From an uncultured virus (IMG/VR IMGVR_UViG_3300026488_000238) (Duplodnaviria; Heunggongvirae; Uroviricota; Caudoviricetes): a DNA stretch of 20,000 bases. Made by a program: the position numbers and the translations under genes. The notes beneath the pieces were generated by a model. That model made no database searches. It had not been told where the DNA came from and saw only the letters and a program-made list of their open reading frames with translations. The DNA is taken from IMG/VR virus record IMGVR_UViG_3300026488_000238. One strand, 5' to 3'. Positions 779 through 19,610 of the stretch are shown piece by piece; within the stretch, counting starts at the first letter, position 1; every line of letters starts with the position of its first letter.

Positions 779-784
779 ATTTAT

Positions 785-877: not shown

Positions 878-892
878 GTCTTGCTCACAATA

Positions 893-921
893 ATTATACC
901 ACATAATGCTAGTGAATGCTA
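893..921 (-). promoter_or_regulatory. Sigma70/SigA-type extended -10 promoter for the tRNA cluster
   Basis: Minus strand TGTGG-TATAAT (893..903), 15 nt upstream of tRNA-Ser; only a weak -35 (TAGCAT) at 17-nt spacing. Confidence 0.7.
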
Positions 922-953
922 TATTGTTTTTGTATTATTAAAGTTTTAAGGTA

Positions 954-983
954 ATGAAAACATATGTTGTGCAAAAGTATAAT
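954..983 (+). promoter_or_regulatory. Putative sigma70/SigA promoter for the plus-strand operon
   Basis: ATGAAA (954..959), 18 nt, then perfect TATAAT (978..983), followed by SD AAGGAGG (1008..1014). Confidence 0.5.
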
Positions 984-1022
984 TACAGTGAAAAAAGATA
1001 AAATTTTAAGGAGGGATTAAAG

Positions 1023-2243
1023 TTGGACCATCGCTTGTATATACCATTATCGCACAGAGGAAAAGTATGGCAAAGTGCTTTCGTATATCCGACTGATGAA
1101 GAAGATGCATTGGTAGTATCAGGTTTTCTTAAAATTCAGCCTATGATTCGAATGTATTCTTATGGCTTTTTATTTTTCATAAAAGTGCCGAGAGGAGATA
1201 TTTTTAGCGGTGGTATAGGAAATTCTTATAAATACGCAGTATTAACGTATTATGTGCCAGTAATAACGTTAATTCCTGTTGCTTCAAACATTTCCATGGC
1301 GGGGCATATGATAGGCATACTAACATATGAAAGTCTTAACAATTATATGATTTTTAGGGTGCAAGGAGTTACGCCTGCGTCTGTATTAGCCTTCACTGCC
1401 GCAGCAAATAAATATGCAGAAGTGCCGTTAAATTATAAGCCTTTACAATACAGTGGGGCAGAGAAAATTATTGCAATGCCAGCGTATGTAACAATTTTGC
1501 GCACATTAAACTCTAATGTAATTCCGGCCATTTCACAATTTGCTGAAGAAGTTGGTTATTTTCAAAAACCTACTGCGTCCACATCCTATCCAACATTTCT
1601 TTCTAAATCGTCGTTTATTTTACTATCTGCATTAGCCGGGTCAGTATCACCAGATGAAACACCTTATCAAACGTCTATCTATTATTATTTTTCTGATAGG
1701 CCGCGTGATATTGATGATTTGCATCCGTATGAATTAACAAAGCGCATACTGCCTATAGGCTCACAAAGCGGAGATCCTGCTACATGGCCTTATGTAGACG
1801 GTATTAATACGGATAAAATTTTAAACGATATTTATACATTGTATTTTGCGATTACAAAGCCGCTCAATGATGGTAGAGACATGTTAAAAATGATTTTCTG
1901 GGGCGCTGTTGATGAAGGAACTTTACGGAAAACAAAAGAAATGTTAGACGAAGTGCTTGCATCTGGCCCAGCTCAATCTAAAAAATCTGTTAAAAAAGTA
2001 GATCCATTTATTGCGGCTTCTAAAAACTTCAATATTCTACGAGATCACGGCGCTTTGGCGTTTCAATTTAATCCTTATCTGCTGTTTTCTTCAATGATAA
2101 CACCAACTTTTGGCAATGTAATAAAAATGTACACAAATAGCAAAGATACTTTTTATTTACCTTTATATCCAAGCGACATTAAAGTGAGGGCGATATCTCA
2201 AAATGTACCGGAAGAGTTTCGTGATGTTTACAGAACAACATAA
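1023..2243 (+). CDS. Hypothetical protein, 406 aa
   Basis: Long ORF with TTG start 8 nt after AAGGAGG; no recognisable motif. Confidence 0.85.
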   Translation: MDHRLYIPLSHRGKVWQSAFVYPTDEEDALVVSGFLKIQPMIRMYSYGFLFFIKVPRGDIFSGGIGNSYKYAVLTYYVPVITLIPVASNISMAGHMIGILTYESLNNYMIFRVQGVTPASVLAFTAAANKYAEVPLNYKPLQYSGAEKIIAMPAYVTILRTLNSNVIPAISQFAEEVGYFQKPTASTSYPTFLSKSSFILLSALAGSVSPDETPYQTSIYYYFSDRPRDIDDLHPYELTKRILPIGSQSGDPATWPYVDGINTDKILNDIYTLYFAITKPLNDGRDMLKMIFWGAVDEGTLRKTKEMLDEVLASGPAQSKKSVKKVDPFIAASKNFNILRDHGALAFQFNPYLLFSSMITPTFGNVIKMYTNSKDTFYLPLYPSDIKVRAISQNVPEEFRDVYRTT

Positions 2244-2266
2244 AAAAGGTGGTGATTATGTAAGCC

Positions 2267-5200
2267 ATGGATATAAAAACCGTAATAGGAGAGCCATTTA
2301 TTAAAGCCATAAAAGTATGGTGGTATTTATGGCAGCACACGTTTGGGATTCCGAGTGTTGGTAACGTAACAGACCATTTGCCATCGGTAAATATTGGTAA
2401 CACGCAAACGGCGCTAATACTAATATTAAAAGGTTTGTTATTTTTAGTTTTGCTGTGGTTGGCATGGAAAGTTATTAGTTTTATATGGTTTGAAATGTAT
2501 GACGCACGCCCAAAGGTATGGTTTAAAATTATTCCTGCTGCCAAAGCTACATTTCAAGTAGACATGGTAAAAAGGCTAATAAATACTTCGTATCAATTAG
2601 CAGTGCCTGACAGTGCTTCGTGGTGGGATTATATTAAATATCGCATAGTACCGCCGCCATCAATTACGTGGCAATACACACCGCTGGGCATTTATCTGGG
2701 CGTGCCAAAAGAATACGAGCATACATTTACAGAAGTGCTTGAAGAAATGAGCGCTGGCAATAAAAAATTCGCATATGTCAAATATATGTTTCAGCCTTAT
2801 GACATGAAAAATGTAGCGCTTGTGAAACTGAAAAAAATCGTATTAGAGCAAGATTCAGTAAAGATTGAAGACTGGAGCGTATCTGATGAAGCAGTTGAGG
2901 GAACTCCACAAAGTAGACTAGAAAAGGGTATTGATACTGTTATTGATCCGGCCTCTCAGTTGTTGCATTATGCCGTTAAAACTGGTGAAGCGATGCAAAT
3001 TACTTTTAGGCCTTTGTGGAAAACCTCTATTTGGACAAGAAAAAGTAAAGGTAAATTCTTATTAAAAATAAGATATCGAGGGCGTGATATTGTATCGCAA
3101 TTGCCGCCGGTTGCTGAGTTTACTACTACAATGAGGGTGCCAATTCTTGGTAAATTATGGGATTTTCGCGCATATAACGGCGCTGTTGGCAGTATTTTTG
3201 AGCCAGCTGTTATATTGCCTTCTGAAAATGAGTTGGCTACTTTTATGTTATTCCCGGCAAACGCTTCGACGGTGGCCACTGAATCAGAAGAGGCTAATTT
3301 ACCGTTTGCATCTTTAGATTACTTTTTCTTTAAGTATCTTGGAAAAATACCAAAGCGTAAATTAGCACGCAGTAAGATGGCTGTTAAACTTATTAAGAAA
3401 ATGTATCAGGATTTAACTGATTTTATAGAGGCCCCTTCTATATATGACGAAGAAATAAAAGGATTACCAAAGGGAAACGCTCTAATTGACATGTTAATGA
3501 ATGATATGACAAAAGATTATCAAAAATATATAAGCACCCATTCCACCATTCCAAAGAAAGTAAAAGAATTACCGCTCTATAAGCGCCTTCCTAATGAAAA
3601 AGTAATTGTTAATATTCCAAAGGTGTTGAAAAAAGTAGAAAAAGCATTACAAAAGAAGCGTTTAAGTGAAAAAGAGGCGAGTAAATTAGCATTTTTAATG
3701 GCTACGATAAAAACTAAGATCGTTGAGCATCCAACGCCTAATTTGTTAACAGAACTAGCGTTTACGTCTCCGCCGGGCAAGCCAGATGATGCCTCTACAA
3801 AAGCAGCCATAAAAGTCGGTTATGCGCTAAATAAAGGTGAAATTACTGATGTTGGCATACTTCGCTATTCGCCCAATAAAAAGTATGTAAAACAGTTCAC
3901 TGATTCAAAAGGTAAAGTTATTACTATTCAATCTAACGCTGACACAGTAAGGGCTCCTCATATTCATGTTATAGGTGCTACCGGTTCAGGTAAGTCAGCA
4001 TTTCTTAAGGCTTTTTCAATAGAGGCATTATATAAAGGCTCCACTGTTATTTTATTAGAGCCACACAATGACATGTCTATTGATATTTACAATTATGCGC
4101 CGGATTTTACAGATCCAGTGTTTCTTATGCCTGGTTATCGTGGTTTGCGCCTATTGCCAAAAGTAGATTTAACAGATCCAAATATTCATCAGAACTATGA
4201 TGCAATTATTAACATTATTATTCAAGGCTTCAGAGGTTTCTTTGCGACGAGAGAAAGATCTGGTAGTCCTGTAACAATGTGGTCTAAGAATGTAGAAGAC
4301 GCAATATCTGCAGCATTTCAAACGGTGGGCTTATTAGATAATCCTACTGTTGATGATTTAATTAGCGTGTTAGTTGATGTTGATTATCGTCAACAAATTC
4401 TTACGCATGCTGCGCAGGATTATCGCTTACGTCCGATAGTGCAAAATATTCAAGAAAAAATGTATGCATTAGAGGGGATATTTAACACTAAAGGAGAACA
4501 TGCAGCAGCCTTAAGAGCTAGTATTTTAGGTAAATTAGAAACACTTAAAAGGACAGACACTCATAAGCAATTCTTAGTTGGTGATTTTGATTTTGATGAA
4601 ATATTCTTCACGCCGCAGCCCAGGCTTGTTGCTATTACATTTCCTTTACAATTTGACAGCGAATACATTATGCTTGTATCGTCTTTTATTTTCTCCAAAA
4701 TAACACAATATGCTTATAAACGCAAAGATTGGGTAGAAAATGATTGGCCTTTAATTTACTTTGTAATAGATGAGGCGCGCTCTATGTTTTCTTCGCCTTT
4801 GTTGCTTAGTAAAATGTTAAATGAGTTGCGTAAGTTCGGCGTAGGCATTGTAGTTTCTCACCAGAGCTTTGCGCAATTTGGCATAGAAAAAGATGCATTT
4901 GCTGCGGCGATGTCTGCTGCTCCACAAAGAATTATTCTTAATGTTGATTCTAAAGAAGATGTCGAACAATTGCGTAGTGTTTTAAAGGACAATATTAACA
5001 TGCTTGGAACGTTAGCAGTAGGAGACTATTTACATGTTCACAAAACAGTCTATAGAGCGCATGCGTATTGGTATAAAGATAGATTCCCCAAATTGCGTGA
5101 TTTACAGCTTGACGATGTACAAATGCGCATACCGCTTGATATTCTTGGCGCGCGTGTATTTTTCCCATCTGTATTAGAGGAAGCTAATGTTGTCATTGAT

Positions 5201-5839
5201 ACAGAGCCGTATTATACAAAATTGTATGGATGGAATAAATTAGCTGTTCCTAAGCAAATAGAAGAGGAGTGGGACAAATATACAGAGGACGTTCTTTATC
5301 CAGAAGCAGCCCCAATTTCTCTCATTCATCTTGGATTAATAGCTAGCAACAAGAAAAATCCATGGTGGCTTGAAAAGTTTGGCTTTGCTTACCTACAACG
5401 CCGAGACAGATTAGATACGAAAAATAAAGAATATACTGATATTATGAAAGAGCCAATTCTCTTTGGACAAGTGCATGATGACTTAATATTAGTAGTGCCG
5501 CTAATTAAAGACAATGTGCGCCCTGATGACGATATATTTGATAATCTCAAGTCATTATTGACAATGCTTGTGTCTAGTTCTAAATTCCAGTATGCCTTAT
5601 TCCCTATTACACCGGAAGATGTTATCCAAAATGTAGAAACAAAGAGATTACAAATTTATATTTATGTTGGGCGTACTAAATCAGTTACGGAAACCGAATT
5701 TAATAATTTCTTAAAACGCATTATAGTTAATGTAGATGCCACGAGCAAGACAATGAGGCGACAAGGCAAACGTCCTGAAGATGTTTTACATGTTATACCG
5801 TTGCCGACGGAAAAAGAATTATTTAAAAAGGGGGAATGA
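2267..5839 (+). CDS. Membrane-anchored VirD4/TraD (coupling protein)-like ATPase of the HerA/FtsK superfamily, 1190 aa
   Basis: N-terminal hydrophobic helix (ALILILKGLLFLVLLWLAW); Walker A HIHVIGATGSGKS (3974..3997) followed by VILLEPHND; Walker B IYFVIDEAR; downstream ELRKFGVGIVVSHQSFAQF, the R-K...hhhQ motif of this superfamily. SD AGGTGGTGA upstream. Confidence 0.85.
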   Translation: MDIKTVIGEPFIKAIKVWWYLWQHTFGIPSVGNVTDHLPSVNIGNTQTALILILKGLLFLVLLWLAWKVISFIWFEMYDARPKVWFKIIPAAKATFQVDMVKRLINTSYQLAVPDSASWWDYIKYRIVPPPSITWQYTPLGIYLGVPKEYEHTFTEVLEEMSAGNKKFAYVKYMFQPYDMKNVALVKLKKIVLEQDSVKIEDWSVSDEAVEGTPQSRLEKGIDTVIDPASQLLHYAVKTGEAMQITFRPLWKTSIWTRKSKGKFLLKIRYRGRDIVSQLPPVAEFTTTMRVPILGKLWDFRAYNGAVGSIFEPAVILPSENELATFMLFPANASTVATESEEANLPFASLDYFFFKYLGKIPKRKLARSKMAVKLIKKMYQDLTDFIEAPSIYDEEIKGLPKGNALIDMLMNDMTKDYQKYISTHSTIPKKVKELPLYKRLPNEKVIVNIPKVLKKVEKALQKKRLSEKEASKLAFLMATIKTKIVEHPTPNLLTELAFTSPPGKPDDASTKAAIKVGYALNKGEITDVGILRYSPNKKYVKQFTDSKGKVITIQSNADTVRAPHIHVIGATGSGKSAFLKAFSIEALYKGSTVILLEPHNDMSIDIYNYAPDFTDPVFLMPGYRGLRLLPKVDLTDPNIHQNYDAIINIIIQGFRGFFATRERSGSPVTMWSKNVEDAISAAFQTVGLLDNPTVDDLISVLVDVDYRQQILTHAAQDYRLRPIVQNIQEKMYALEGIFNTKGEHAAALRASILGKLETLKRTDTHKQFLVGDFDFDEIFFTPQPRLVAITFPLQFDSEYIMLVSSFIFSKITQYAYKRKDWVENDWPLIYFVIDEARSMFSSPLLLSKMLNELRKFGVGIVVSHQSFAQFGIEKDAFAAAMSAAPQRIILNVDSKEDVEQLRSVLKDNINMLGTLAVGDYLHVHKTVYRAHAYWYKDRFPKLRDLQLDDVQMRIPLDILGARVFFPSVLEEANVVIDTEPYYTKLYGWNKLAVPKQIEEEWDKYTEDVLYPEAAPISLIHLGLIASNKKNPWWLEKFGFAYLQRRDRLDTKNKEYTDIMKEPILFGQVHDDLILVVPLIKDNVRPDDDIFDNLKSLLTMLVSSSKFQYALFPITPEDVIQNVETKRLQIYIYVGRTKSVTETEFNNFLKRIIVNVDATSKTMRRQGKRPEDVLHVIPLPTEKELFKKGE

Positions 5840-5845
5840 GATGAA

Positions 5846-7540
5846 ATGAGCGTATTTTTCATAGATAAAAAGGCGTATAATCAATTACATCGTGATCCGG
5901 ATTTTCAAGGTGTTGATTTGGTTGTTGTAAAAAAGTGGGATGTAAGCGTTACGGCGCAAAATATTATTGATTATCTTGAAGAAAAGGGTGGTCTATTGCC
6001 GGAAACGATAGAAAAGATTAATAATATTGTTGTTGCCGGCTATAACATGCCTGAAGGTTTTGATTCCGATGTAGTATTAGCTTTGCGCGATACCATAACA
6101 GATGAAGAATTATATCAAGTATTAGTAGATCACTTATTTTTTGAGTCTATTCCATCCAATTATAAAGCAAGCAGTATTTTGATTTCTTACACATACAGCT
6201 CGGCGTTTGTAGAAGAATTGCAAGAACTATCATTTCAAGAGGAATTTAGTGATATTACAGATATTGTAGATACGGTTGCTGACCTTGCAGAAGACAAAAA
6301 AGTTAAGCAAACTGTTAAGAAATTGCGCAAAGTTAGTAAGAAAAAGCAACCTAAGAAAAAGAAAGCAAAGAAAAAGACTGCGCAGAAATATGATGTTTAT
6401 CTCTTGCCACAACACAGTTATTTAAATGGCCGATTATTTAACTATCAAACATTCATAATAGAAGATAGTTATGACAATATCATTTATAATCTTAGATTAC
6501 GCAAAGGAACATTTAAGAGTTTGTCTGAAACGGCAACATATGCAATTATTACTCCATATCAAAACAAATTTGTTGTTGTTATTCCTGAAGTCACTGATAA
6601 GAAATTGTTATCAGATCATAAAATTTCAGTTCCTTTTATGTATTTCTTAACTAAAGAAGAATCTGAAAGTGCTAAAGGTTACATTATTGTAGAAAAATCG
6701 CACTCTTCTGCGGCTTCGGCTTATGACATGACATTTATAAGCAAAGTAGGCGATTATGTGGTTTACTTTGATATTGCATATAAATTAAGCACATCCAATC
6801 CTTTTACTAGTATTGATGAATATTTGGCAAATCTTCCCTCTCAAAACATTGAAATTGTTTTAACAGATCCACAGTCGCGTAGTGCGATAGCAAACGCTTT
6901 ACAAAGCAAAAATACGCCGCCGCAATTAAAGGGTGCCACAGTAAAGATGCTTGACGATTATGATGGGATTATTTTAAAAGAGTCGTCTGTTTCAACAACC
7001 TTTGATAAGCCTTATCTTGCTTCAGATGTGCCATCGTTTAAGAAAGTTGGTAAATTTGACTTAAAAACATTCATATATAGTGACGCGGTTTACTCTGATA
7101 CTATTAGCGCTTTGAAGAGTGCAATTGTTATTTTACTTGTTGCTGGAATTATGTCTGGCTTTTCATTTGCGGCGGATAATGTAAGAACAAGATTAGATCA
7201 ATATAAATCTTATCTATCGCAACAATATTATGCAGTGCAGCAATCGCCAGTTGTGCAAAACATAAATGAATTACAGCAATATTTGCAAACAGTAAACTTT
7301 GATCAATCAACATCAATAGTAATTAAAAGAATGTATGAATTATTTGGCACAAATCTTCGCAGGCTAGTATATTCGCCGAAAGATAAAGAAATTATTATTG
7401 AGTTATCTACAATTTCAGGCCTATCGCCGACAGATTATATTATGACGCTGATGAAATCTGATATTGTTGATTATATTCAGCCGCCAAAAACTCTTAGCTC
7501 AGGCGAAGGCACTATCAGGCTTATGATTAAGTTGAAATAA
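5846..7540 (+). CDS. Bitopic membrane protein with PilM-PilN fusion / GspL-like architecture (tentative), 564 aa
   Basis: About 425-aa soluble N-terminus, single TM (AIVILLVAGIMSGFSFAA), Q/Y-rich coiled coil, then a short alpha/beta C-terminal domain. First in a cluster with T4P ATPases. The ORF is secure; the function rests on architecture only. Confidence 0.5.
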   Translation: MSVFFIDKKAYNQLHRDPDFQGVDLVVVKKWDVSVTAQNIIDYLEEKGGLLPETIEKINNIVVAGYNMPEGFDSDVVLALRDTITDEELYQVLVDHLFFESIPSNYKASSILISYTYSSAFVEELQELSFQEEFSDITDIVDTVADLAEDKKVKQTVKKLRKVSKKKQPKKKKAKKKTAQKYDVYLLPQHSYLNGRLFNYQTFIIEDSYDNIIYNLRLRKGTFKSLSETATYAIITPYQNKFVVVIPEVTDKKLLSDHKISVPFMYFLTKEESESAKGYIIVEKSHSSAASAYDMTFISKVGDYVVYFDIAYKLSTSNPFTSIDEYLANLPSQNIEIVLTDPQSRSAIANALQSKNTPPQLKGATVKMLDDYDGIILKESSVSTTFDKPYLASDVPSFKKVGKFDLKTFIYSDAVYSDTISALKSAIVILLVAGIMSGFSFAADNVRTRLDQYKSYLSQQYYAVQQSPVVQNINELQQYLQTVNFDQSTSIVIKRMYELFGTNLRRLVYSPKDKEIIIELSTISGLSPTDYIMTLMKSDIVDYIQPPKTLSSGEGTIRLMIKLK

Positions 7541-7560
7541 AGAGAAGGGGTGATGGAATA

Positions 7561-8397
7561 GTGTGGAATATAATTATTCTGATAATAATCGGCATTTACG
7601 CATGGGTGATGGTGTCAAATGTTTATAAACACTATGGGCGATTATCCACCGCAATTATAGTAACATTTCCCGCATTAGCTGCATTGATTATTCTGTATAT
7701 GTTTACAGCGCCATTTATAACTAACACTTTTGATTCGATTAAAATAAATCATGAAAGTTATGCATTAAGAGAACAGATTGAACAACAGATACAGACTGCG
7801 CTTAACGATGTTAATAATAGAATAACCACTAATGATTTGGAAAAATTAAAGAATTATATAGTTTTTTCAGAAGGGGCTTATTTCAGAGTTGGTTATATCT
7901 TTGATAAATTAAATATCACATCTGGACAAATTGATTTCGCGCCGGCAAAGAGAAAGCAAGTAGTTGGTGATATATATCAACACACAATTGGTTATAGCGA
8001 TCAATCTGATAGCATTGTTAGTAACGGTGGAAATCCTGGGATTTTAGACGTGATACAGAGATTGTCAAAGTTCTTTATTGTTGATAATGTTAGCATTGTA
8101 GGGCGTGAAACTTACTTATATATGTGTCCCGGACGCGAAGGTTGGTCAATTGTGCCTTGTAAGAATCCGATAGATAGAAAAACCGTTTTTACTTGGAATT
8201 ATTCGCTAAAATTACTGCAATACGAATATGGTAAGGACCCAAATATCAAAAATGTAGATGTAGACGTATATAACATGAGTGGCGATAAAATAGATGGGCC
8301 AATTAAACTTTCAGATGCCCTTGAAAAATATGGACAAATTGGTGGAGTTGTCATTGTAAAAGCACACAAGGAGGCGGTAAATAATGGGCAAAAATAG
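7561..8397 (+). CDS. Membrane protein, possible PilO/GspM-like alignment component, 278 aa
   Basis: GTG start after GAAGGGGTGA; two N-terminal hydrophobic helices, coiled coil (LREQIEQQIQTALNDVNNRI), soluble domain with a Cys pair CPGREGWSIVPC. Follows the PilN-like gene. Confidence 0.4.
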   Translation: MWNIIILIIIGIYAWVMVSNVYKHYGRLSTAIIVTFPALAALIILYMFTAPFITNTFDSIKINHESYALREQIEQQIQTALNDVNNRITTNDLEKLKNYIVFSEGAYFRVGYIFDKLNITSGQIDFAPAKRKQVVGDIYQHTIGYSDQSDSIVSNGGNPGILDVIQRLSKFFIVDNVSIVGRETYLYMCPGREGWSIVPCKNPIDRKTVFTWNYSLKLLQYEYGKDPNIKNVDVDVYNMSGDKIDGPIKLSDALEKYGQIGGVVIVKAHKEAVNNGQK

Positions 8398-10439: not shown

Positions 10440-10456
10440 AAGGAGGGGAATAACAG

Positions 10457-12862: not shown

Positions 12863-12882
12863 ATATTCATAGGAGGAGGTAG

Positions 12883-13200
12883 ATGTTAAATATGCTAACA
12901 GTGAAAACCAAAAAGAAAAATGACAAGAACACAAAAAAGGTGGTTAAAGCATTGTTTGACAATTATGATCTCATTGCGCCACATGTTGCTAGGACATATA
13001 AACTATTTTATCCGGAAGAGTTTGCATGGGTACCTGGAACGCCCACAACAGAAGATGTACAAATTACGCAACGCACAAGTGAGTTTTTGCAGCGATATGT
13101 TGACAAGCAATCGATGCTAGTAATTCTATCAACAATAATTGCGATATATAAGGAGGAATTAAGCAATGACAGACGGGACAGATCCGAAGGAAATATTTGA
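12883..13200 (+). CDS. Hypothetical protein, 105 aa
   Basis: SD AGGAGGAGGT immediately upstream; basic N-terminus; overlaps the next gene. Confidence 0.75.
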   Translation: MLNMLTVKTKKKNDKNTKKVVKALFDNYDLIAPHVARTYKLFYPEEFAWVPGTPTTEDVQITQRTSEFLQRYVDKQSMLVILSTIIAIYKEELSNDRRDRSEGNI

Positions 13201-14008
13201 AGAAATATTTTCTGTTAGTCCGACGATTAACAAAAACAAAGACGAACAGCACACTATTGTTTTGCCTGAGAGTGATAGTGTAACGATTAAAGATAAACGA
13301 ACTAAATCTAATAATAACTTTTTATCGTTAGAAGAACTAGCATTAGAATATTTGAAAAAAACAGCGCAAAGAGTTTTTATTCCATTTACACCGGAAGATC
13401 ATTTGGCGACAATTAAAGAAAAAGCAGCATCTGTTGCTACAACCCTTTCCACACAAATGCCGGTAACAGATATTACAAAAACTAGTCAGCATGTGTTTGC
13501 ATTGATGATATTAGATGTTATACCGTTAGAAGTAGGCGCTTACGGTTTTGATATTAAGAGACTCATGATACCATCTATTGCAGAAATTACTTCCATTCCT
13601 GAAGAAATCGCAAAATCTGTGGCACGCATTTATCTTTCTGACTTTTTTGCAATGGACCAAAAAAGGCAACAACAACTTGCATTATCTTTTGTAAATGCAT
13701 TAAGTGTAATGAATAGCGAGATTCAGCGTGGTAATATAAGCCAAGAGGCTATTTTAGCAACTTATCCTTATTTGTGGGGGGCTACAGATGCAGTATTATC
13801 GTTATACTCTTACGATTTTTCCGAAGAAATTGTGATGGATATTTACAAGGCATTAGTACCGTTATTAGAACATGTATTAATAAAACGTTCTTTCTTGGAC
13901 CTTTTACCTGGAAGCACTACTGAATATATTAATAGATTATCTTTTACATTTAAAATTGCTTTTAATATTAACTATCTCGCTTCCAAATATGCAATGGATG
14001 TTAAATAA
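13166..14008 (+). CDS. Hypothetical alpha-helical protein, 280 aa
   Basis: SD AAGGAGG 9 nt upstream of ATG; no recognisable motif. Confidence 0.85.
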   Translation: MTDGTDPKEIFEEIFSVSPTINKNKDEQHTIVLPESDSVTIKDKRTKSNNNFLSLEELALEYLKKTAQRVFIPFTPEDHLATIKEKAASVATTLSTQMPVTDITKTSQHVFALMILDVIPLEVGAYGFDIKRLMIPSIAEITSIPEEIAKSVARIYLSDFFAMDQKRQQQLALSFVNALSVMNSEIQRGNISQEAILATYPYLWGATDAVLSLYSYDFSEEIVMDIYKALVPLLEHVLIKRSFLDLLPGSTTEYINRLSFTFKIAFNINYLASKYAMDVK

Positions 14009-14013
14009 AGCAT

Positions 14014-14045
14014 TTGTCAAGTCTTTGTTGTGCTCGATTTATAAT
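14014..14045 (+). promoter_or_regulatory. Possible internal promoter ahead of the pseudopilin-like genes
   Basis: 73-nt intergenic gap with perfect TATAAT (14040..14045); TTGTCA at 14014..14019 but with an atypical 20-nt spacer. Confidence 0.35.
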
Positions 14046-14081
14046 TATTGTGGCAATTAATAAATTGGGAGGGGATTAGCT

Positions 14082-14837
14082 ATGTGGCTTGAAGATAAAA
14101 TTATTCATTTTCTAGTAGTGCTTACAATATTGGTAATTATTGTTATTGCTGGCCTTGGAGGATTGGCATGGATAGAATTACAACAATCTGCTACTGTGAT
14201 GGCTATGCGTGATGAAACAAGCGCACAAATAGAAAGCGTTGAATATGATTTAACAAATAAAATCAATGAAATTAAAATTAATATGAAACAAACTTATTAT
14301 ACGTCGCAGCATTTAAAAGATTTTGTGGCGCAGTATGTTGATATATCTTTTCTTGATTGGATAGCAAATAATAAGATTCAGTCAGATCTTTTTATAACTG
14401 ATGCACGTTTTATTCCTAATAAGGATGGGCTTTCTTATAATTTTTGCCTTAACGCACAATTAATGCAAGATGTTAATCCTAATAACTTTTATTTTAATAA
14501 CTTTACGGTTACAGCTACTCAAGGACAAGTTAACATTTGCATAAACAGGATACCCACAAAAGAAATTATGCAAATTGCAGAACAATATATTAATAACGAC
14601 ACTGGAGCTAAAAAGTTCTTTAGTTTTCTAAAATATGACATATTGCAAATAGATATTGAAGCGTACGGCATTACTCGTTTGAGATTTATAGTGCATAATA
14701 CTTCGGATACGTTAAAATTATATGCAAAACGATATGCATATAATAATATGGCACACACATTAAAATATTCGCGATATTTATGGGATATTAATTTTGAGCA
14801 AGGAATAGTTGACATTTATGTAGGAGGTGGTATGTAA
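14082..14837 (+). CDS. N-terminally membrane-anchored protein, pseudopilin-like, 251 aa
   Basis: SD GGGAGGGG; hydrophobic N-terminus FLVVLTILVIIVIAGLGGLAW then a long amphipathic helix and beta-rich domain with two Cys. No class III cleavage site. Confidence 0.55.
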   Translation: MWLEDKIIHFLVVLTILVIIVIAGLGGLAWIELQQSATVMAMRDETSAQIESVEYDLTNKINEIKINMKQTYYTSQHLKDFVAQYVDISFLDWIANNKIQSDLFITDARFIPNKDGLSYNFCLNAQLMQDVNPNNFYFNNFTVTATQGQVNICINRIPTKEIMQIAEQYINNDTGAKKFFSFLKYDILQIDIEAYGITRLRFIVHNTSDTLKLYAKRYAYNNMAHTLKYSRYLWDINFEQGIVDIYVGGGM

Positions 14838-14838
14838 T

Positions 14839-15198
14839 ATGAATGCATTAATGCAGGCTGTTGCAAGTATTTTAATATCGATAATAATCATAACTGGCAC
14901 ATTATATATTGCGATAAGCACTGCGCCAAGGATGCCGTTTGATTTACCAAAGGGGGTATATATGCAAGCGGTAGTGACTGACTTACCTGGAAACGTCAAA
15001 GTTGTATACAAAGACGCTGCGGGGCAATGGAAATATGAAAACCTAAGCGTTGCCTTATCACAACACAAGGCAGAAAAAATAGGGCCAATTAAATATCTGA
15101 CAAAGACATCAGAAAAAGCGACCGCTACTGGTGATTTATATATAAGTGAAGACATAAATGTATTTTTCGTTACGCCAATGACAATAGGAGGTGAATAA
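14839..15198 (+). CDS. Small N-terminally anchored protein, pseudopilin-like, 119 aa
   Basis: Start reassigned from 14827 to ATG 14839, after SD AGGAGGTGG and 1 nt after the upstream stop. N-terminal TM AVASILISIIIITGTLYIAI. Confidence 0.6.
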   Translation: MNALMQAVASILISIIIITGTLYIAISTAPRMPFDLPKGVYMQAVVTDLPGNVKVVYKDAAGQWKYENLSVALSQHKAEKIGPIKYLTKTSEKATATGDLYISEDINVFFVTPMTIGGE

Positions 15199-15204
15199 TA
15201 GGCT

Positions 15205-15942
15205 ATGGATGAATTAGGAATAGCCATATTAATTAGTTTTCTGATATTCGGATTATTTACTATATCTCTTACAAGCACGTGGCAAAGTGCAGCGCCACAA
15301 ATGAAGGAACAGAATTTCGCGGCAACATTGAATTATATTATTAATTTTCTTTACATGCAATCATACGAAGGAAAAACATTAGACGATTTAACACAGCCAA
15401 TTACGAAAGACGGTGTGACACTGCAAGCATGGATGTGGGATATACAAGATGGAACATGGTGTTATAACGTACAAGACGCATTAAACACATTGCCTGATTT
15501 TGTGAAAGATAAAGTGGGGCTTGAATACGTGAAGCAATACATACAAGAAAATGCTGATAGAATTCAACAATTTGCAATGAATGAAAATACATGCCTTTAT
15601 GTATATACGCACAGAGGCAGACGGGCAATTATTGATTATTGGAGTTTGCATAAATGCTCTGAGTTTGATGCAGACAATATGCCGGCAGTGTGTGCTGGTT
15701 GTCCCACATGCGGAGTGTTAGAGGCAAAGAAAATAAGCCAAATAGGGATAGAAGAGTTAAATGGTTTGCAATATATTGGCTTTCGCCCTTATACCAATAC
15801 AGCAACGGTGGCTGACAACATTGATCCGACAATAATGTCGTCGTTAAAATCGGGAGAAGCAGTGGATTTAGACGGATATTACAGCGCTGATGGTGGTGTA
15901 GCAAATACAGATCCAATATATCAATATTTAAGCACTAGATAA
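15205..15942 (+). CDS. N-terminally anchored Cys-rich protein, possible minor pilin or adhesin, 245 aa
   Basis: SD GGAGGTGA; MDELGIAILISFLIFGLFTISL hydrophobic N-terminus; six Cys including CAGCPTC. Confidence 0.6.
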   Translation: MDELGIAILISFLIFGLFTISLTSTWQSAAPQMKEQNFAATLNYIINFLYMQSYEGKTLDDLTQPITKDGVTLQAWMWDIQDGTWCYNVQDALNTLPDFVKDKVGLEYVKQYIQENADRIQQFAMNENTCLYVYTHRGRRAIIDYWSLHKCSEFDADNMPAVCAGCPTCGVLEAKKISQIGIEELNGLQYIGFRPYTNTATVADNIDPTIMSSLKSGEAVDLDGYYSADGGVANTDPIYQYLSTR

Positions 15943-15958
15943 AGGAGGTGAATAAGCC

Positions 15959-16300
15959 TTGTTGGGTGACAAAAATCCTTTTCTTATAGTTGAAACTGTT
16001 AAGTATGATGGTTCTTTGCCGGAGGATAATACTCTAATTATGCAGGAGCTATATTATGGCTTATCTTTGTATTCTTTGGTAGAGGTAAAAATGATTGACG
16101 AAGATGGAGAAATGATACGATCTTATGACCCAAGAATGTTAGCTAGTGTTTTTGATAATCTCAAAGGTGCTATTCCACATCCGGAAAAAGTGGCAGAATA
16201 TAAAAAAGATTTAAAATCGCGCATTGAGCCAAAAGACCTTGCTATTCTGGACGTTGTTATTAGTGATCTTATAAGCGCAAAAAAGGAGGAGAATAAATAA
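15959..16300 (+). CDS. Hypothetical protein, 113 aa
   Basis: TTG start after a perfect AAAGGAGGTGA SD. Confidence 0.8.
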   Translation: MLGDKNPFLIVETVKYDGSLPEDNTLIMQELYYGLSLYSLVEVKMIDEDGEMIRSYDPRMLASVFDNLKGAIPHPEKVAEYKKDLKSRIEPKDLAILDVVISDLISAKKEENK

Positions 16301-16301
16301 G

Positions 16302-17093
16302 ATGGTGTGGAATAAATTAAAAAAAGTTCTATTAGGCCAAAAATTAACAGGTTCAGATAAAAAAGTAAATGTATATCAGGCAAAATTATCAATTAAGGCC
16401 AGCAATACAAGCGGAGAATTATTAAAAACATGGAATGAAAAATTTTATGAAACACTAATTGAAGCCTTATCTTCTGTTGCCGTGTTAAACATTCCGGGCG
16501 TATGGAGTGGTTTTGAATGGCAATGGGATCCTGTAGCAGCCGCGCGCAAAGAAGGGCAAATAGAATATGGATATATTGTTGGAAATAGCATACTTTTATC
16601 TCCGCTAATTAGAGAAATGGATTTACCTGATAAATTAGCAATAATTACTGCGACGCAACAAAAAGCGTATATAAAGAATAATCATGATTTTATTGCTGCT
16701 CGTGCGGCAAAAGGCATTATTGCTACGCGGCTGCTAGGTGAAGAAATTGTAATTTATAATGAGCTACATATAGAATTTAATCGCGGTTTTAGTGAAGATA
16801 TAAGGCTTTATAGCACCTCTCAATTTATTAGAGTTCCATTGCAAACAGATTTTCACGCCCTATTTGCGCTACATTTATCAGGAGGTTTAACTAGACACAA
16901 AAGATTTGTAACATATCGCCCAAAAGCTTTTATGACAAAGCATGTCTATAATCGTTATAATACGATGGCAGAAGATACAAAAATAATATCTCGTCTTATT
17001 GTACCAGAACCAGCGGAAATGCAAGTTGAGACTTTCTTTGCTTTGGCTAATGTTAATGCTAGCAAATATTTATGGCAGGTGAATCTGAAATGA
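16302..17093 (+). CDS. Hypothetical protein, 263 aa
   Basis: SD AAGGAGG within the upstream gene end; ATG 1 nt after its stop. Confidence 0.85.
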   Translation: MVWNKLKKVLLGQKLTGSDKKVNVYQAKLSIKASNTSGELLKTWNEKFYETLIEALSSVAVLNIPGVWSGFEWQWDPVAAARKEGQIEYGYIVGNSILLSPLIREMDLPDKLAIITATQQKAYIKNNHDFIAARAAKGIIATRLLGEEIVIYNELHIEFNRGFSEDIRLYSTSQFIRVPLQTDFHALFALHLSGGLTRHKRFVTYRPKAFMTKHVYNRYNTMAEDTKIISRLIVPEPAEMQVETFFALANVNASKYLWQVNLK

Positions 17094-17674
17094 AGTATTT
17101 ATTATTTGAAAACAAACTTTATGCGTTTGATAACAATATTTTTGAAGAAATTGTTGCTCTTGATAAGCCACAAGCTGCATTTTTTTTATTTAGAAATAAT
17201 ACGGCAATTATTGGTAATGACAAACATTTAGAAGATGTTAGCATTTTTATACCGTCAGATTTTAACATTGCGCGATATGCCCATCTTGCTGTAGATAGTC
17301 AAATAGTTGTTAGCCTTGATGAAATTAAACAGAAATATCAACCATTAGGATTAATACCGCAGTCATGGACCGTGAAAACGCATAGCAGACTGATACAATT
17401 GCCTTTTTGGTTGCCATTGATTGCTGTTCGTTCAAATGATACAGAACAGGTGCTGGCACTATTAAAATTTGCCGGAGTTGTTATATGGCCCCAGGCGCTG
17501 ATGGATAGTTTGTTTAATTGTTTCATGGGACAGCCTTGGAATAAAAATATAGATAATTACATTACATTTATGAAAGTTAAAAATACCCCTTATATGGTCT
17601 TTGATAATAAGTTAGCCGCCCCAATGAGAAAAATTACATGGCTAAACGAGGTGAAACGCTTATGTGGGCGGTAA
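17090..17674 (+). CDS. Hypothetical protein, 194 aa
   Basis: Start reassigned from 17072 to ATG 17090 (ATGA overlap with upstream stop, SD AGGTGA 7 nt upstream). Confidence 0.8.
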   Translation: MKYLLFENKLYAFDNNIFEEIVALDKPQAAFFLFRNNTAIIGNDKHLEDVSIFIPSDFNIARYAHLAVDSQIVVSLDEIKQKYQPLGLIPQSWTVKTHSRLIQLPFWLPLIAVRSNDTEQVLALLKFAGVVIWPQALMDSLFNCFMGQPWNKNIDNYITFMKVKNTPYMVFDNKLAAPMRKITWLNEVKRLCGR

Positions 17675-18246
17675 TCGCTCAAAAAGCAAAAGAATTTTAT
17701 AAATTACCCGGCTCTCCTGAAACAGCGGAAAATGTTGTCAATGCAATCGAAAAATGTAAAGGGCAATGCTTAAACATTATATTGCAACAATTAGAGGCAC
17801 AAGAAGATTATTTGTCTATAACAATTGCGTTTATTTATTCTGCAGCAAGAAAATATGTTGACGAGGATAAACTAGAACAAATGCTTAAGGATTTTCTTAG
17901 TAGACATAAGGAAATTACTCATCAATGGATATTAACATACGAATTTATAATAAATGTATTGCAAAAGGTTAACGATATTACGATGAATAAAGAAATTAAA
18001 CAAATAGCTGAAATCGATCGGCAATTGTCTAAAATGCTATCAAATACAGATTATAGCATGTTTTATCATACATTGCTGCGTTTCTATCACAATCCCGATG
18101 TGCGTCAGCTGCGTGTAAATGAATCGTTGCCTTTGATAGTTAGTAATCAAACAATGTTAAAAGCCGCAAAGATTTTGACTAAAAATATTGAAGTCACAAA
18201 AGAAAATGCTATCAGTTTATTAAGGAATAAATTGTATAGCAAGTGA
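17662..18246 (+). CDS. Hypothetical alpha-helical protein, 194 aa
   Basis: Start reassigned from 17638 to ATG 17662, which follows SD GAGGTGA. Confidence 0.8.
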   Translation: MWAVIAQKAKEFYKLPGSPETAENVVNAIEKCKGQCLNIILQQLEAQEDYLSITIAFIYSAARKYVDEDKLEQMLKDFLSRHKEITHQWILTYEFIINVLQKVNDITMNKEIKQIAEIDRQLSKMLSNTDYSMFYHTLLRFYHNPDVRQLRVNESLPLIVSNQTMLKAAKILTKNIEVTKENAISLLRNKLYSK

Positions 18247-18302
18247 CGATATTCCGGTCTCTTATTATTTTAAATGATAGTATATTTTAACTGTATGATA
18301 AC

Positions 18303-18322
18303 ACCAGCTTAATAAAGCTGGT
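18303..18322. promoter_or_regulatory. Perfect 8-bp inverted repeat upstream of the pilin gene
   Basis: ACCAGCTT-AATA-AAGCTGGT, just after -10-like hexamers (TG-A-TAGTAT 18275..18283; TATGAT 18294..18299). No U tract follows, so not a classic intrinsic terminator. Confidence 0.5.
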
Positions 18323-18362
18323 AACAACAAAAAATCTATAACGAATGGGAGGTGCGTATTAC

Positions 18363-18902
18363 ATGCGCAAACATGGTTTTACACTTGTAGAGCTATTAGT
18401 AGTCTTAGCCGTTATTGCTATGCTCGCCGCTGCATTTGGCGGTTCTATTTATTCTTCTGTTATTGAAAAGACTCATTTGACAGCTGCCATTTCTTCTGCA
18501 GACACAATCGCAAAGGGATTGCAGACTTACTCACTCAACAATAGCAAATTTGATTTTGCAAGCGTTGACGAATTAAAGACAAAGCTTAAAAATCTTTATG
18601 CTGACTATGATGCAGTATGGCCTTGGGATAACACAAAGACAATGTTTGATATGATTTCTGGTATGTATATTCCATCTGATGATCCACAGTCTATCGCTGT
18701 TTGGTGGGCTCTTCCAAAGGCCGCTAACACAGTTGCAGCTCGTCAGAAAGATGCACAGACAGCTTGCTCCAGCGTAATTCCTGGTTTCACCAATCCTTCC
18801 GGTGCTACTGGCAATTACGTCCTTTACCTCAAAGTTTCCTCTAATCCTAACGCTGACGCAACACAGAGAAAGGTTATCGGTATTTGCAAGATAGGAGGAT
18901 AA
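18363..18902 (+). CDS. Type IV pilin (prepilin-type N-terminal cleavage/methylation domain), probably the major pilin, 179 aa
   Basis: MRKHG|FTLVELLVVLAVIAMLAAAF: short basic leader, G-1, F+1, E+5. C-terminal Cys pair (QTACSS...VIGICK). True start ATG 18363 lies 8 nt after GGAGGTG. Confidence 0.95.
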   Translation: MRKHGFTLVELLVVLAVIAMLAAAFGGSIYSSVIEKTHLTAAISSADTIAKGLQTYSLNNSKFDFASVDELKTKLKNLYADYDAVWPWDNTKTMFDMISGMYIPSDDPQSIAVWWALPKAANTVAARQKDAQTACSSVIPGFTNPSGATGNYVLYLKVSSNPNADATQRKVIGICKIGG

Positions 18903-19606: not shown

Positions 19607-19610
19607 TGTC

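Follow-up and report, generated by a model that had tools for sequence, protein, structure and literature searches.

Coupling proteins of the VirD4/TrwB type (T4CPs), such as R388 TrwB and F TraD, are membrane-anchored at the N-terminus and carry a RecA-like NTPase that contains a helical insertion and whose Walker A and B motifs are intact. T4SSs employ VirB11, DotB or TraJ, and conjugative elements may carry an accessory type IV pilus, examples being IncI1 R64 with its thin pilus and elements of the PAPI-1/ICEclc type. In these systems VirB4, a relaxase and a full channel occur together with a platform (PilR) and a peptidase (PilU). Single-ATPase transfer systems are represented by Streptomyces TraB and Thermus TdtA. 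The Ced/Ups systems of Sulfolobales are described as joining a type IV pilus to a membrane-associated VirB4/HerA-like ATPase and as moving DNA with no relaxase or classical T4SS (PMC11868833). VirB4 has been called the one ubiquitous T4SS protein (PMC12102498), the generic TFF definition given in PMC6668835 requires an ATPase, a platform and a pilin, and the defence system MADS is presented as an operon whose eight genes encode ATPases, nucleases, methyltransferases and kinases (PMC13662399).

The stretch of DNA analyzed here (the window, 20 kb from a longer contig, ~63-72 kb in size) carries an operon of 17 plus-strand ORFs which tile positions 1023-18902, all co-directional (Table 1). Fourteen of the 16 junctions overlap or measure at most 25 nt, the remaining two being 73 and 98 nt, and 6 nt lie between the stop codon of a 1190-aa ATPase and the start of ORF564. 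Most starts are preceded by GGAGG-like Shine-Dalgarno (SD) sites. These measurements confirmed the layout given in a preliminary description of this DNA, namely a co-oriented gene run with gaps mostly under 25 nt in which the ATPase lies 6 nt upstream of its neighbor and shares its operon with two pilus-type ATPases and a pilin; the three pseudopilins and the complete type IV pilus machine also proposed there were not recovered, as detailed below. Base composition is uniform, core and accessory genes being alike. A strong SD (AAGGAGGG) stands ahead of the TTG start of the first gene, and the promoter-like site at 954-983 (ATGAAA-18-TATAAT) is a consensus match only, 95 such sites occurring window-wide against 88 expected from shuffled sequence. 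The tRNA cluster, divergent from the operon, marks its upstream boundary. Near-identical DNA is also present in further hydrothermal-vent runs; the piece 9283-9674, matched at ~99-100% identity by a contig from an independent run (X2), spans the junction between ORF342 and the first ATPase gene of the T2SSE family.

Table 1. Features of the window, with the evidence for each
Feature	Coordinates	Strand	Class	Evidence
tRNA-Pro(CGG), tRNA-Thr(CGT), tRNA-Ser(GCT) cluster	618..877	-		ARAGORN; Rfam tRNA 55-69 bits; readable CCA ends
Non-coding region upstream of operon	878..1022	+		Promoter-like site, strong SD
ORF406, soluble, first operon gene	1023..2243	+	Core	L015 orthologue, 31% identity
1190-aa membrane-anchored P-loop ATPase	2267..5839	+	Core	Pfam, hydrophobicity, AF2, structural alignment, hhalign, tree
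ORF564	5846..7540	+	Core	L015 orthologue; no family/PDB match
ORF278, two N-terminal TM segments and ~225 aa domain	7561..8397	+	Core	L015 orthologue; no family match
ORF342, ~240 aa N-terminal domain, one TM (242-260), short tail	8384..9412	+	Core	L015 orthologue; no family match
360-aa PilB/PilT/DotB-superfamily ATPase	9357..10439	+	Accessory	PF00437 E 6e-10; not in L015
801-aa PilB/GspE/DotB-superfamily ATPase	10457..12862	+	Accessory	PF00437 E 2e-18
ORF105, small, soluble	12883..13200	+	Core	L015:9495-9785, 35% identity
ORF280, soluble	13166..14008	+	Accessory	No match in L015 or libraries
ORF251, ORF123, ORF245, one N-terminal hydrophobic helix each	14082..15942	+	Accessory	KD scan; no L015 homologue
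ORF113 and ORF263, soluble	15959..17093	+	Core	L015 orthologues
ORF200 and ORF202, soluble	17072..18246	+	Accessory	No L015 or family match
Type IV pilin/pseudopilin gene, probable start 18363 (ORF 18345-18902)	18363..18902	+		N_methyl E 8e-9; TIGR02532, GspG

The 1190-aa ATPase has a single strong N-terminal hydrophobic segment (TM, residues 48-75), followed by an uncharacterised region (~76-545), the NTPase with a helical insertion (~553-943) and an uncharacterised C-terminal domain (~944-1190). Walker A (GATGSGKS, 570-577) and Walker B (D835-E836) are intact, and Pfam gave weak DUF87, TrwB_AAD_bind and FtsK matches. Residues 508-1020 were modelled with AF2 (core pLDDT >90); TrwB was the top Foldseek match (E 9e-11), while VIA structural alignment placed TrwB (Z 25.3, 342 aligned) and the VirB4 C-terminal domain (Z 25.3) level with the C-terminal domain of DndH (Z 24.9). 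By hhalign, R388 TrwB was matched with 90% probability over 264 columns, R388 VirB4 with 18% and pCF10 PcfC, barely recognisable, with 3.6%. A family HMM scored all three VirD4-type T4CPs (E 5e-18 to 4e-9) above all four VirB4s (2e-5 to 0.02). In the tree, from which PcfC and PrgJ were dropped for want of a regex Walker A, the window ATPase and its remote homologues form a clade sister to TrwB+TraD with VirB4 outside (support 83, with few references and long branches). The protein is thus supported as a relative of the coupling proteins, in the TrwB/VirD4-related branch of the FtsK-HerA superfamily, but is a deep branch beside the canonical coupling proteins and not within them. Where the preliminary description spoke of a membrane-anchored coupling-protein-type ATPase, the anchor and the relation to coupling proteins held, but the protein does not nest among the canonical T4CPs. 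It differs from T4CPs further in its length, with ~470 aa before and ~250 aa after the NTPase uncharacterised, in its identity to TrwB of 15-16%, in forming a separate radiation, and in lacking neighboring genes for a relaxase, VirB4 or a T4SS channel.

Relatives of this ATPase are few. Three close-ish ones were found among 1.84 billion cluster representatives, and tblastn of its ATPase domain against 72,556 plasmids gave just three weak matches. CedD and CedB were the top NCBIfam matches, over short stretches (34 and 23 bits against cut-offs of 600 and 700). The best library profile was the defence ATPase mad8 (PADLOC; 54.7 bits, E 2.7e-15), accompanied by weak DndH matches. An anti-phage defence system around a mad8/DndH-like ATPase would account for these scores and for the DndH structural match, and remote homologues (E ~1e-10) do lie in R-M/recombinase islands, where their neighbors are serine recombinases, type I R-M genes and SMC-like genes instead of transfer genes. 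This explanation is nonetheless highly improbable. PADLOC returned nothing for the other 20 ORFs scanned (16 in the operon), no further mad or dnd gene and no nuclease, methylase or effector domain was found in the window, and the MADS domains listed in PMC13662399 were not found there. To our knowledge, no described defence system resembles a set of seven membrane-anchored proteins, T2SSE ATPases and a pilin.

Almost all window proteins are orphans, which, together with the tRNA cluster adjoining the operon, would suit a large phage or virus of a vent bacterium whose operon serves virion assembly, packaging, genome delivery or egress, with the FtsK-HerA-type ATPase as motor and ORF406 or ORF263 as structural proteins. 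PHROG profiles without assigned function were among the best matches of the three ATPases (phrog_5156, 54 bits; phrog_26606), the STIV2 B204 packaging ATPase aligned to the model with Z 17, and the protein-atlas lead for ORF406 was viral hypotheticals, at 0.80 a chance-level value. Capsid, portal, terminase and tail profiles, however, matched nothing in the window or in L015, the syntenic contig described below. No tblastn match to the 1190-aa ATPase was obtained in 50,697 phage records, and IMG/VR held two remote matches to it and no relative of ORF406, the 801-aa ATPase or the window end. The ATPase also exceeds known packaging ATPases of the FtsK-HerA type fivefold in size, and its profile is nearer TrwB. 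A viral module is accordingly regarded as distinctly unlikely.

The metagenomic contig L015, the single syntenic relative, was compared over 15.7 kb and retains eight of the 17 genes (phmmer E 1e-8 to 9e-173), with their order largely preserved. The conserved core consists of the 1190-aa ATPase, three membrane proteins (ORF564, ORF278, ORF342) and four soluble proteins (ORF406, ORF105, ORF113, ORF263). ORF406 matched L015:1032-2333 (BLASTP E 3e-50, phmmer E 5e-54) and nothing in Pfam, NCBIfam, PHROG or PDB, and its AF2 model reached a pLDDT of only 31.7. ORF564 comprises ~415 aa predicted to be cytoplasmic, one TM (~420-440) and a C-terminal domain of ~125 aa; a Lys-rich stretch in the cytoplasmic part (~150-181) is Lys-rich in the L015 orthologue too. 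The ORF113/ORF263 homologues of L015 sit directly upstream of its ORF406 homologue, and downstream of its module are a 3-TM protein, a TM-anchored 3D-domain (peptidoglycan-lytic type) wall hydrolase and a DnaB-type helicase. Such a combination is typical of monoderm transfer/mobile modules; the DnaB and the 3D-domain lysin-like protein also match phage families, a point in favor of the viral explanation.

Both T2SSE ATPases and the pilin are missing from L015 (15.7 kb examined). Searching 4110 ORFs from 94 homologue loci with a T2SSE ATPase HMM gave no match (best E 0.023), and these loci held one pilin-like ORF in all. ORF342 and ORF105, adjacent in L015, are here separated by the two T2SSE genes, with overlapping or 17-20 nt junctions. 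The preliminary description named ATPase homologues without linked pilus genes as evidence against its reading, and this is largely what was observed, the sole syntenic relative lacking these genes. The evolutionarily conserved unit is the eight-gene module, not "pilus plus pump".

That description was right in assigning two ATPases to the PulE/PilT family, both being T2SSE members, which share 27% identity over 131 aa. The 360-aa protein probably starts at GTG 9372, ahead of which stands AGGTGGTG, and a Walker A motif, an Asp box, a Walker B-like motif and a His box can be recognised in its sequence. Its profile matches were ComGA (1.7e-20), TraJ (3e-10) and PilT (3e-9), and its best PDB matches PilF, PilT and DotB; the family membership of this PilT-sized ATPase therefore stands, but its identity as PilT does not (36 bits to pilT_fam, cut-off 319). 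The 801-aa protein, an orphan in 5.8e9 clusters, has its core at ~350-575, flanked by 350 N-terminal and 225 C-terminal residues which are uncharacterised. It matched ComGA (6.5e-22) and DotB (8e-12) profiles, and its best solved match was the T4SS ATPase DotB (8.7e-11), then BfpD and PilF. TraJ and DotB profiles match both proteins, a likeness to the PilT/VirB11-superfamily ATPases of T4SSs.

The pilin start is preceded by GGGAGGTG, and the predicted short leader of 5 aa (MRKHG, before FTLVELLVVLAVIAML; cleavage context MRKHG↓FTLVE) upholds the earlier call of a true pilin; an identical cluster member of 179 aa was found. The gene is set off from the rest of the operon by 98-116 nt with a 7-bp hairpin, so that a promoter of its own is possible. 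ORF251, ORF123 and ORF245 were not confirmed as pseudopilins; they share the N-terminal helix alone, with no N_methyl/pilin match even at E<=5 and no G↓F...E5 motif. Profiles for VirB4, VirB6, relaxase, the T2SSF platform and prepilin peptidase matched none of the 21 window ORFs, no VirB8-like or other T4SS part was recognisable by profile in the window, and each window protein showed at most two hydrophobic segments. The reported lack of VirB4, a VirB6-like polytopic protein and a relaxase was therefore reproduced, and, since neither inner-membrane platform nor prepilin peptidase is present, the window falls short of encoding a complete type IV pilus machine. With hhalign, none of 240 query-reference pairs with R388 and pCF10 T4SS proteins reached 20% probability (best 2.3%).

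R64/PAPI-1/ICEclc-type elements resemble the locus in that a single transfer-like region groups a T4CP-related ATPase with a type IV pilin and one or more PilB/PilT-superfamily ATPases, but the window lacks their VirB4, channel, relaxase, platform and peptidase, and its pilin leader is short. Monoderm T4SSs (MPF-FATA/FA; pCF10 Prg/Pcf, pCW3 Tcp) and the single-ATPase systems TraB and TdtA share with the locus a membrane ATPase, bitopic membrane proteins, the lack of outer-membrane parts and, on L015, a TM-anchored wall hydrolase; no VirB4 or hhalign match of the above kind links the window to monoderm T4SSs, however, and TcpA/FtsK-type ATPases are more distant than TrwB. Ced/Ups (CedA/A1/A2/B, CedD/E; UpsA/B/C/E/F) is alike in concept, a pilus set with a VirB4/HerA-like ATPase, yet the Ced scores are far under cut-off, no CedA-like polytopic protein is present, and Ced/Ups is archaeal with Ced and Ups genes not in one operon, while the window pilin and SD-led genes are bacterial in type.

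By analogy with Ups+Ced, TraB and TdtA, the whole operon might work as one integrated machine for DNA transfer or uptake. Cells or DNA would then be drawn by a retractile type IV pilus towards a lone translocase anchored in the membrane, the 801-aa protein acting as extension motor, the 360-aa protein as retraction motor and the three helix-bearing proteins as odd minor pilins beside the pilin. The tight co-directional operon with T2SSE genes embedded among core genes, two distinct T2SSE ATPases with readable catalytic boxes, a canonical pilin, the missing VirB4, VirB6 and relaxase, and the Sulfolobales precedent for type IV pili and VirB4-like ATPases in DNA exchange (PMC11868833) speak for it. 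The lack of a platform, which the TFF definition of PMC6668835 needs, of a peptidase and of any polytopic protein in the window, minor pilins devoid of a pilin signature, an unproven PilT, the pilus-free L015 and 94 loci, and the ~100 nt and hairpin before the pilin make it rather unlikely.

The same unconserved linkage, and the probable start region of the pilin's own, could mean that module and pilus-type genes are functionally independent and merely share a direction of transcription in this lineage. Among Patescibacteria, 148 of 5,713 VirD4-type T4CP homologues are reported near virB4 and exaptation is suggested (PMC12102498). Such juxtaposition is unlikely, as the T2SSE pair interrupts the core gene order, at junctions that overlap or are short, instead of lying alongside it, is no self-sufficient pilus unit without platform or peptidase, and shares the uniform composition.

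We tentatively prefer, at somewhat less than even confidence, to read the locus as a translocation module of eight genes, probably carried by a mobile element, which took up parts of a type IV filament in this lineage. Several observations count against translocation: no T4SS part is recognisable, mad8 is the best profile, homologues of the ATPase are not beside transfer genes, plasmid matches are three and weak, the clade falls outside TrwB+TraD, and there is a single syntenic relative. The core would most likely be the cytoplasmic-membrane part of a conjugation/T4SS-like substrate-translocation apparatus, with the membrane-anchored ATPase as a putative hexamer-type motor and the single- or double-pass proteins ORF564, ORF278 and ORF342 as candidate partners. 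Its substrate may be DNA or, less likely, protein, and the probable carrier, a mobile element or genomic island, would belong to a low-GC, uncultured bacterium of hydrothermal vents, possibly a monoderm-type thermophile. With 20 kb of the contig covered, a virus or a chromosome is a further, less favored possibility. In this genome two PilB/PilT/DotB-superfamily ATPases are inserted among the core genes, and four small genes (three membrane-anchored) and, past a gap, a canonical type IV pilin are added. From the T2SSE insertion and these added genes, the module seems to have acquired filament parts of the type IV kind, which may co-operate with the core, in a manner comparable to the use of VirB11, DotB or TraJ by T4SSs or to the accessory pilus of conjugative elements; alternatively, L015 may have lost them.

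Seventeen ORFs, all on the + strand, tile positions 1023-18902 of the window (G+C content 35%), and most of their starts are preceded by a GGAGG-like Shine-Dalgarno site. The genes form the tight co-oriented run that had been reported from the sequence: only two of the 16 junctions exceed 25 nt (73 nt ahead of position 14082, 98 nt ahead of the pilin gene), while the other 14 are at most 25 nt long or overlap, and the gap between the gene for the 1190-aa ATPase and the next gene is indeed 6 nt. The end of the operon is marked by a strand switch and a change of sign in GC skew at approximately 18.9 kb. The convergent ORFs beyond this point matched nothing in the libraries and lacked relatives among the homologue loci. 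A repeat scan of the window found no oriT-, att- or array-like repeats, while scans for terminators and promoters gave counts near the shuffled expectation. Based on Pfam, NCBIfam and PHROGs, family matches were obtained for four operon products only, namely the 1190-aa ATPase, the 360-aa and 801-aa T2SSE-family ATPases and the pilin.

Features of the window and of the homologue loci discussed in the text
Feature	Location	Strand	Remarks
Lys/Glu-rich coiled-coil ORF	3-611	+	21-nt tandem units (KEKDEVI/KEKDEAI) at 208-266
Three-tRNA cluster (Pro-CGG, Thr-CGT, Ser-GCT)	618-877	-	tightly packed, divergent, upstream of operon, CCA ends encoded
1190-aa ATPase	2267-5839	+	
Lys run of ORF564	6290-6390	+	residues ~150-181
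360-aa T2SSE ATPase	9357-10439	+	
801-aa T2SSE ATPase	10457-12862	+	
ORF251, ORF123, ORF245	14082-15942	+	
Pilin	18363-18902	+	
Three convergent ORFs (127, 96, 129+ aa)	18933-20000	-	downstream of operon
ORF564 orthologue	L015:5878-7707		
3-TM protein, then TM-anchored 3D-domain (peptidoglycan-lytic type) protein, then DnaB-type helicase	L015:11408-14410		
Mid-distance ATPase paralogue and neighbours	L016:1-4468		
Remote ~1000-aa TrwB-like ATPase locus	L053:9932-23091		
Remote ~1000-aa TrwB-like ATPase locus	L019:9995-15007		
Remote ~1000-aa TrwB-like ATPase locus	L021:8317-12005		
Remote ~1000-aa TrwB-like ATPase locus	L020:5020-11229		

The window represents 20 kb of a source contig of approximately 63 kb, for which a second assembly gives 72 kb. 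Near-identical DNA was found in one probable source run and in four further runs from three further studies, two of which are labelled hydrothermal vent metagenome; no RNA run was listed for it. Run-contig joints at 80% likeness had sides of <30 nt and were left aside, as were gaps in the cover by single runs. Short contigs of approximately 99-100% identity together spanned the whole window, the T2SSE genes among it, and one of them bridged the junction between ORF342 and the T2SSE pair; the gene arrangement is therefore not an assembly chimera. These contigs represent the same strain-level entity and not independent evolutionary evidence. In one of the runs (X4) a contig is short by exactly 21 nt at position 218, and the number of tandem units thus differs between populations. 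The tRNA cluster is, by eye, markedly more G+C-rich than its surroundings. G+C-rich tRNAs in AT-rich DNA are a pattern typical of thermophiles, so that a thermophilic source is suggested. The anticodons CGG and CGT belong to rarely needed tRNAs, and contigs of many other organisms stack up at this cluster in the runs compared.

The 1190-aa ATPase possesses a single strong N-terminal hydrophobic segment (residues 48-75, KD 2.5), i.e. a T4CP-type N-terminal TM anchor, which is kept in the orthologue on the syntenic metagenomic contig L015. Its Walker A (GATGSGKS, 570-577) and Walker B (D835-E836) motifs are invariant across its small family. Matches to Pfam were weak and mixed (DUF87, TrwB_AAD_bind and FtsK, ~22 bits), and the NCBIfam models CedD, TraD, CedB and VirB4 scored 17-34 bits against cut-offs of 366-700; the Ced equivalog scores were not reached (CedD 33.7 bits, cut-off 600; CedB 23.3 bits, cut-off 700). 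Other matching profiles were phrog_5156 (54 bits), PADLOC mad8 (54.7 bits) and DndH. An AF2 model of residues 508-1020, based on an alignment of 69 sequences and confident at residues ~562-935 (pLDDT mostly >90), revealed a RecA-like core carrying a seven-helix insertion (fragment 133-263), as in the TrwB-like NTPase domain. The top Foldseek match of this model was TrwB (E 9e-11). By VIA-align the VirB4-CTD (Z 25.3), TrwB (Z 25.3, rmsd 4.0, 342 aligned) and the DndH C-domain (Z 24.9) were tied, with HerA (21.0) and DotL (20.8) behind them.

Profile comparisons placed the protein closer to coupling proteins than to VirB4. With hhalign, the T4CP TrwB of R388 was matched at 90% probability over 264 columns versus 18% over 45 columns for its VirB4, TrwK; the pCF10 proteins PcfC (T4CP) and PrgJ (VirB4) gave 3.6% and 0.9%, respectively. 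With the family HMM, the T4CPs TrwB, TraD and PcfC scored better (E 5e-18 to 4e-9) than any of the four VirB4 references did (2e-5 to 0.02), and the VirB4 N-domain profile CagE_TrbE_VirB had no match in the protein. In architecture (TM, long N-domain, ATPase) it resembles VirB3-VirB4 fusions, which are mentioned in a published study (PMC12102498). In a quick maximum-likelihood tree (IQ-TREE, 52 rows, FtsK root), which held two T4CP references only and left out PcfC and PrgJ because a Walker A regex had missed them, the ATPase grouped with the sequences P0002, P0003 and P0004 (support 100); this clade fell within a 45-row radiation (98), sister to TrwB plus TraD (83) and with VirB4 outside, on long branches. 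The label "VirD4/HerA-like" used in the preliminary description is fair at the superfamily level, the protein being T4CP-related, but does not extend to T4CP identity itself. By sequence and structure its nearest relatives are TrwB-type T4CPs and the defence ATPases mad8 and DndH. For the N-domain the protein atlas gave a lead (0.89-0.87) that included DUF8128 of Saccharimonadota, which Pfam did not bear out.

Close relatives of the ATPase are rare. A word-based search of 5.8 billion clusters returned the protein itself alone, and HMMER against 1.84 billion representatives gave 894 matches, 11 of them at E<=1e-10 and 4 (self included) at E<=1e-30; the remote matches are proteins that combine TrwB_AAD_bind, DUF87 and TraG-D_C. 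The 801-aa ATPase and the pilin are orphans to the same degree. No match to the 1190-aa ATPase was obtained by tblastn in phage records, and three weak ones were obtained in plasmids, on Streptomyces and Embleya replicons. Neither the 1190-aa ATPase, used as a single query, nor ORF406 nor the 801-aa ATPase had a relative in IMG/VR, where an exact search with 55 nt of the window end also gave no match. Matches of the 801-aa ATPase in phage records proved to be generic GspE/PilT genes in records resembling bacterial DNA. The remote ~1000-aa TrwB-like ATPases are repeatedly accompanied by a small, paralogous TrwB-like ATPase and a ~200-aa protein, and, across the four loci, by serine recombinases, type I R-M genes (among them a fusion) and SMC-like genes, including an SMC-like ATPase. 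These regions look like defence or mobile islands rather than pilus or transfer loci, and are possibly MADS-related, given the mad8 profile match. For the operon itself a role in defence, to which the kinship of the ATPase with mad8 and DndH would point, is highly improbable: from the MADS set mad1-mad8 mad8 alone was matched, and the other 20 ORFs of the window gave no PADLOC match.

What did emerge, unexpectedly, was a linkage of eight genes around the ATPase. In the only syntenic relative found, the 18.3-kb contig L015 (15.7 kb compared), homologues of ORF113, ORF263, ORF406, the ATPase, ORF564, ORF278, ORF342 and ORF105 occur in exactly this order, with phmmer E values of 1e-8 to 9e-173 and 23-35% identity. 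Both T2SSE ATPases, ORF280, ORF251, ORF123, ORF245, ORF200, ORF202 and the pilin have no counterpart in the 15.7 kb, and the T2SSE pair of the window is inserted between ORF342 and ORF105, which are adjacent genes in L015. Beyond the core, L015 carries two unknown ORFs, the 3-TM protein, the TM-anchored 3D-domain protein (E 1.5e-13) and the DnaB-type helicase (E 2e-32). No DnaB N-domain was detectable in this helicase. At its length L015 could be a small complete element. Contig L016, which belongs to the sample series of L015, carries a paralogue of the ATPase with 26% identity. Behind it lie a dCache-domain sensor and two small ORFs without annotation, but none of the core genes, which indicates that the eight-gene linkage is specific to the closest clade.

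The core is best read, though tentatively, as a conjugation/T4SS-like translocation module of the cytoplasmic membrane to which type IV filament parts would have been added in this lineage. This is suggested by the anchored T4CP-related ATPase with its conserved bitopic membrane partners, by a Lys-rich cytoplasmic stretch in both ORF564 orthologues, and by the wall hydrolase and helicase that adjoin the core in L015. The Lys run of ORF564 (KKVKQTVKKLRKVSKKKQPKKKKAKKKTAQK) lies on the predicted cytoplasmic side, and the L015 orthologue is likewise Lys-rich despite 27% overall identity; the stretch may serve as a linker that binds nucleic acid or lipid. Anything said here of the module's substrate, the direction of transport, protein contacts or filament formation is what we infer from the gene content, folds, synteny and absences observed. 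Pair profiles of ORF406 and ORF564 gave nothing meaningful against PDB sequences (best E 0.5), and a Pfam search at E<=5 with 28 unannotated proteins or domains found no match common to both members of any orthologue pair. The AF2 model of ORF406, made from a two-sequence alignment, was unusable (pLDDT 31.7), and its nearest protein-atlas clusters (0.80) were at chance level.

The generic definition of a type IV filament machine comprises an ATPase, an inner membrane platform and a major pilin, as set out by Denise et al. 2019 (PMC6668835). A PilB/GspE-type ATPase is represented twice (PF00437, E 2e-18 for the 801-aa and 6e-10 for the 360-aa protein); the two are 27% identical, and in both the Walker A, Asp, Walker B and His boxes are readable. 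Their best profile is ComGA (73-78 bits, cut-off 300) and their best solved relatives are DotB, BfpD, PilF and PilT. The supposedly PilT-sized 360-aa protein scored 36.4 bits on pilT_fam (cut-off 319), with ComGA, TfpB and TraJ higher and a PDB list mixing PilF, PilT and DotB; on sequence, the pair is not assignable to PilB, PilT, ComGA, DotB or TraJ. The NCBIfam match lists also show that the T2SSE superfamily includes the T4SS ATPases VirB11, DotB, TraJ and TrbB, and the presence of such ATPases alone therefore does not imply a pilus. The pilin is genuine, as had been proposed (N_methyl E 8e-9, TIGR02532 E 5e-8, class III signal MRKHG/FTLVELL). Its start is most likely at 18363, behind GGGAGGTG, in agreement with an identical 179-aa cluster member. 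The spacer ahead of it (18247-18362) contains a 7-bp hairpin (CCAGCTT-AATA-AAGCTGG, ~18305-18322) and AT-rich -10-like motifs, and the pilin may be transcribed apart from the operon. The three supposed pseudopilins, ORF251, ORF123 and ORF245, have an N-terminal hydrophobic helix only and no N_methyl or pilin match at E<=5. Among the 21 ORFs of the 20-kb window no T2SSF/platform profile (PilC/GspF/TadB-C) was matched and none has at least three hydrophobic segments, nor was a prepilin peptidase (peptidase A24, DiS_P_DiS), the gene for which may lie elsewhere in a genome, matched in the window. What stands of the type IV pilus machine first described is thus two T2SSE ATPases and one pilin, with platform, polytopic protein and peptidase absent from the window.

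Conservation of the ATPase-pilus linkage in relatives was largely refuted: L015 has no pilus genes in the 15.7 kb compared, a T2SSE-ATPase HMM found none in 4110 ORFs from all 94 homologue loci (best E 0.023), and a pilin-N-terminus regex matched one of these ORFs (in L064). The preliminary description, in which a retractile pilus serves a single DNA or protein pump, was confirmed in part as an observation and supported in part as an interpretation; that pilus and pump form one integrated machine is rather unlikely, the close spacing of their genes notwithstanding. Mere juxtaposition of an ATPase module and pilus-type genes, to which the pilus-free L015 core would correspond, is itself unlikely; the T2SSE pair stands inside the core, and base composition is uniform between core and accessory genes.

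Profiles confirmed the reported lack of VirB4, VirB6-like protein and relaxase in the window, where VirB8-like proteins were not matched either, and no relaxase or T4SS lies beside the ATPase in the window or L015. When 12 unknown proteins were compared by hhalign with 20 T4SS proteins of R388 and pCF10, 0 of 240 pairs reached 20%. No virion, relaxase, integrase or defence-effector domains were found in the window. A virus module, as the phrog_5156 match might suggest, is improbable. It is doubtful, too, that the operon encodes a hybrid envelope machine, in which the orphan T4CP-related ATPase and its seven partners would have captured PilB/PilT-type motors together with a type IV pilin. Such a machine would use a type IV filament and one hexameric translocase to carry DNA from cell to cell or into cells, and would do so with no VirB4, no canonical platform and no relaxase of a known type; it would belong to thermophilic bacteria of vents or to mobile elements of these. 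T4SS-bearing elements that also carry an accessory pilus of type IV, such as R64 and PAPI-1, are among the nearest in concept. So is Ups/Ced of the Sulfolobales (PMC11868833); the hybrid machine, if real, would be its conceptual counterpart in bacteria, undescribed before. A literature search for such an ATPase/pilus combination, supplementary files aside, did not turn up this module. VirD4-type homologues are numerous in Patescibacteria, where most of them lie far from virB4 and may have been exapted (PMC12102498). The present operon differs from VirD4-like genes beside pilus genes in that group: its pilus-type ATPases stand within the conserved order of the core, and its 1190-aa ATPase is of a different and much rarer clade.

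The novelty lies in the partner set of the putative T4CP-related translocation module, which is undescribed, the type of module itself being known. A VirD4-like ATPase next to pilus genes is not to be read as one machine without a synteny test. Even if the function were virus assembly or defence, the module would offer a tractable ATPase surrounded by unknown membrane proteins in a set that is compact and conserved. Should the core be a transfer apparatus, the coupling-protein/VirB4 radiation gains a deep and so far unsampled branch, the partner proteins of which are recognised by none of the current profiles. If true, this would be a second, independent route by which type IV filament motors became attached to a DNA or protein translocase, and would bear both on the evolution of conjugation-like systems and on gene flow within the communities of hydrothermal vents.
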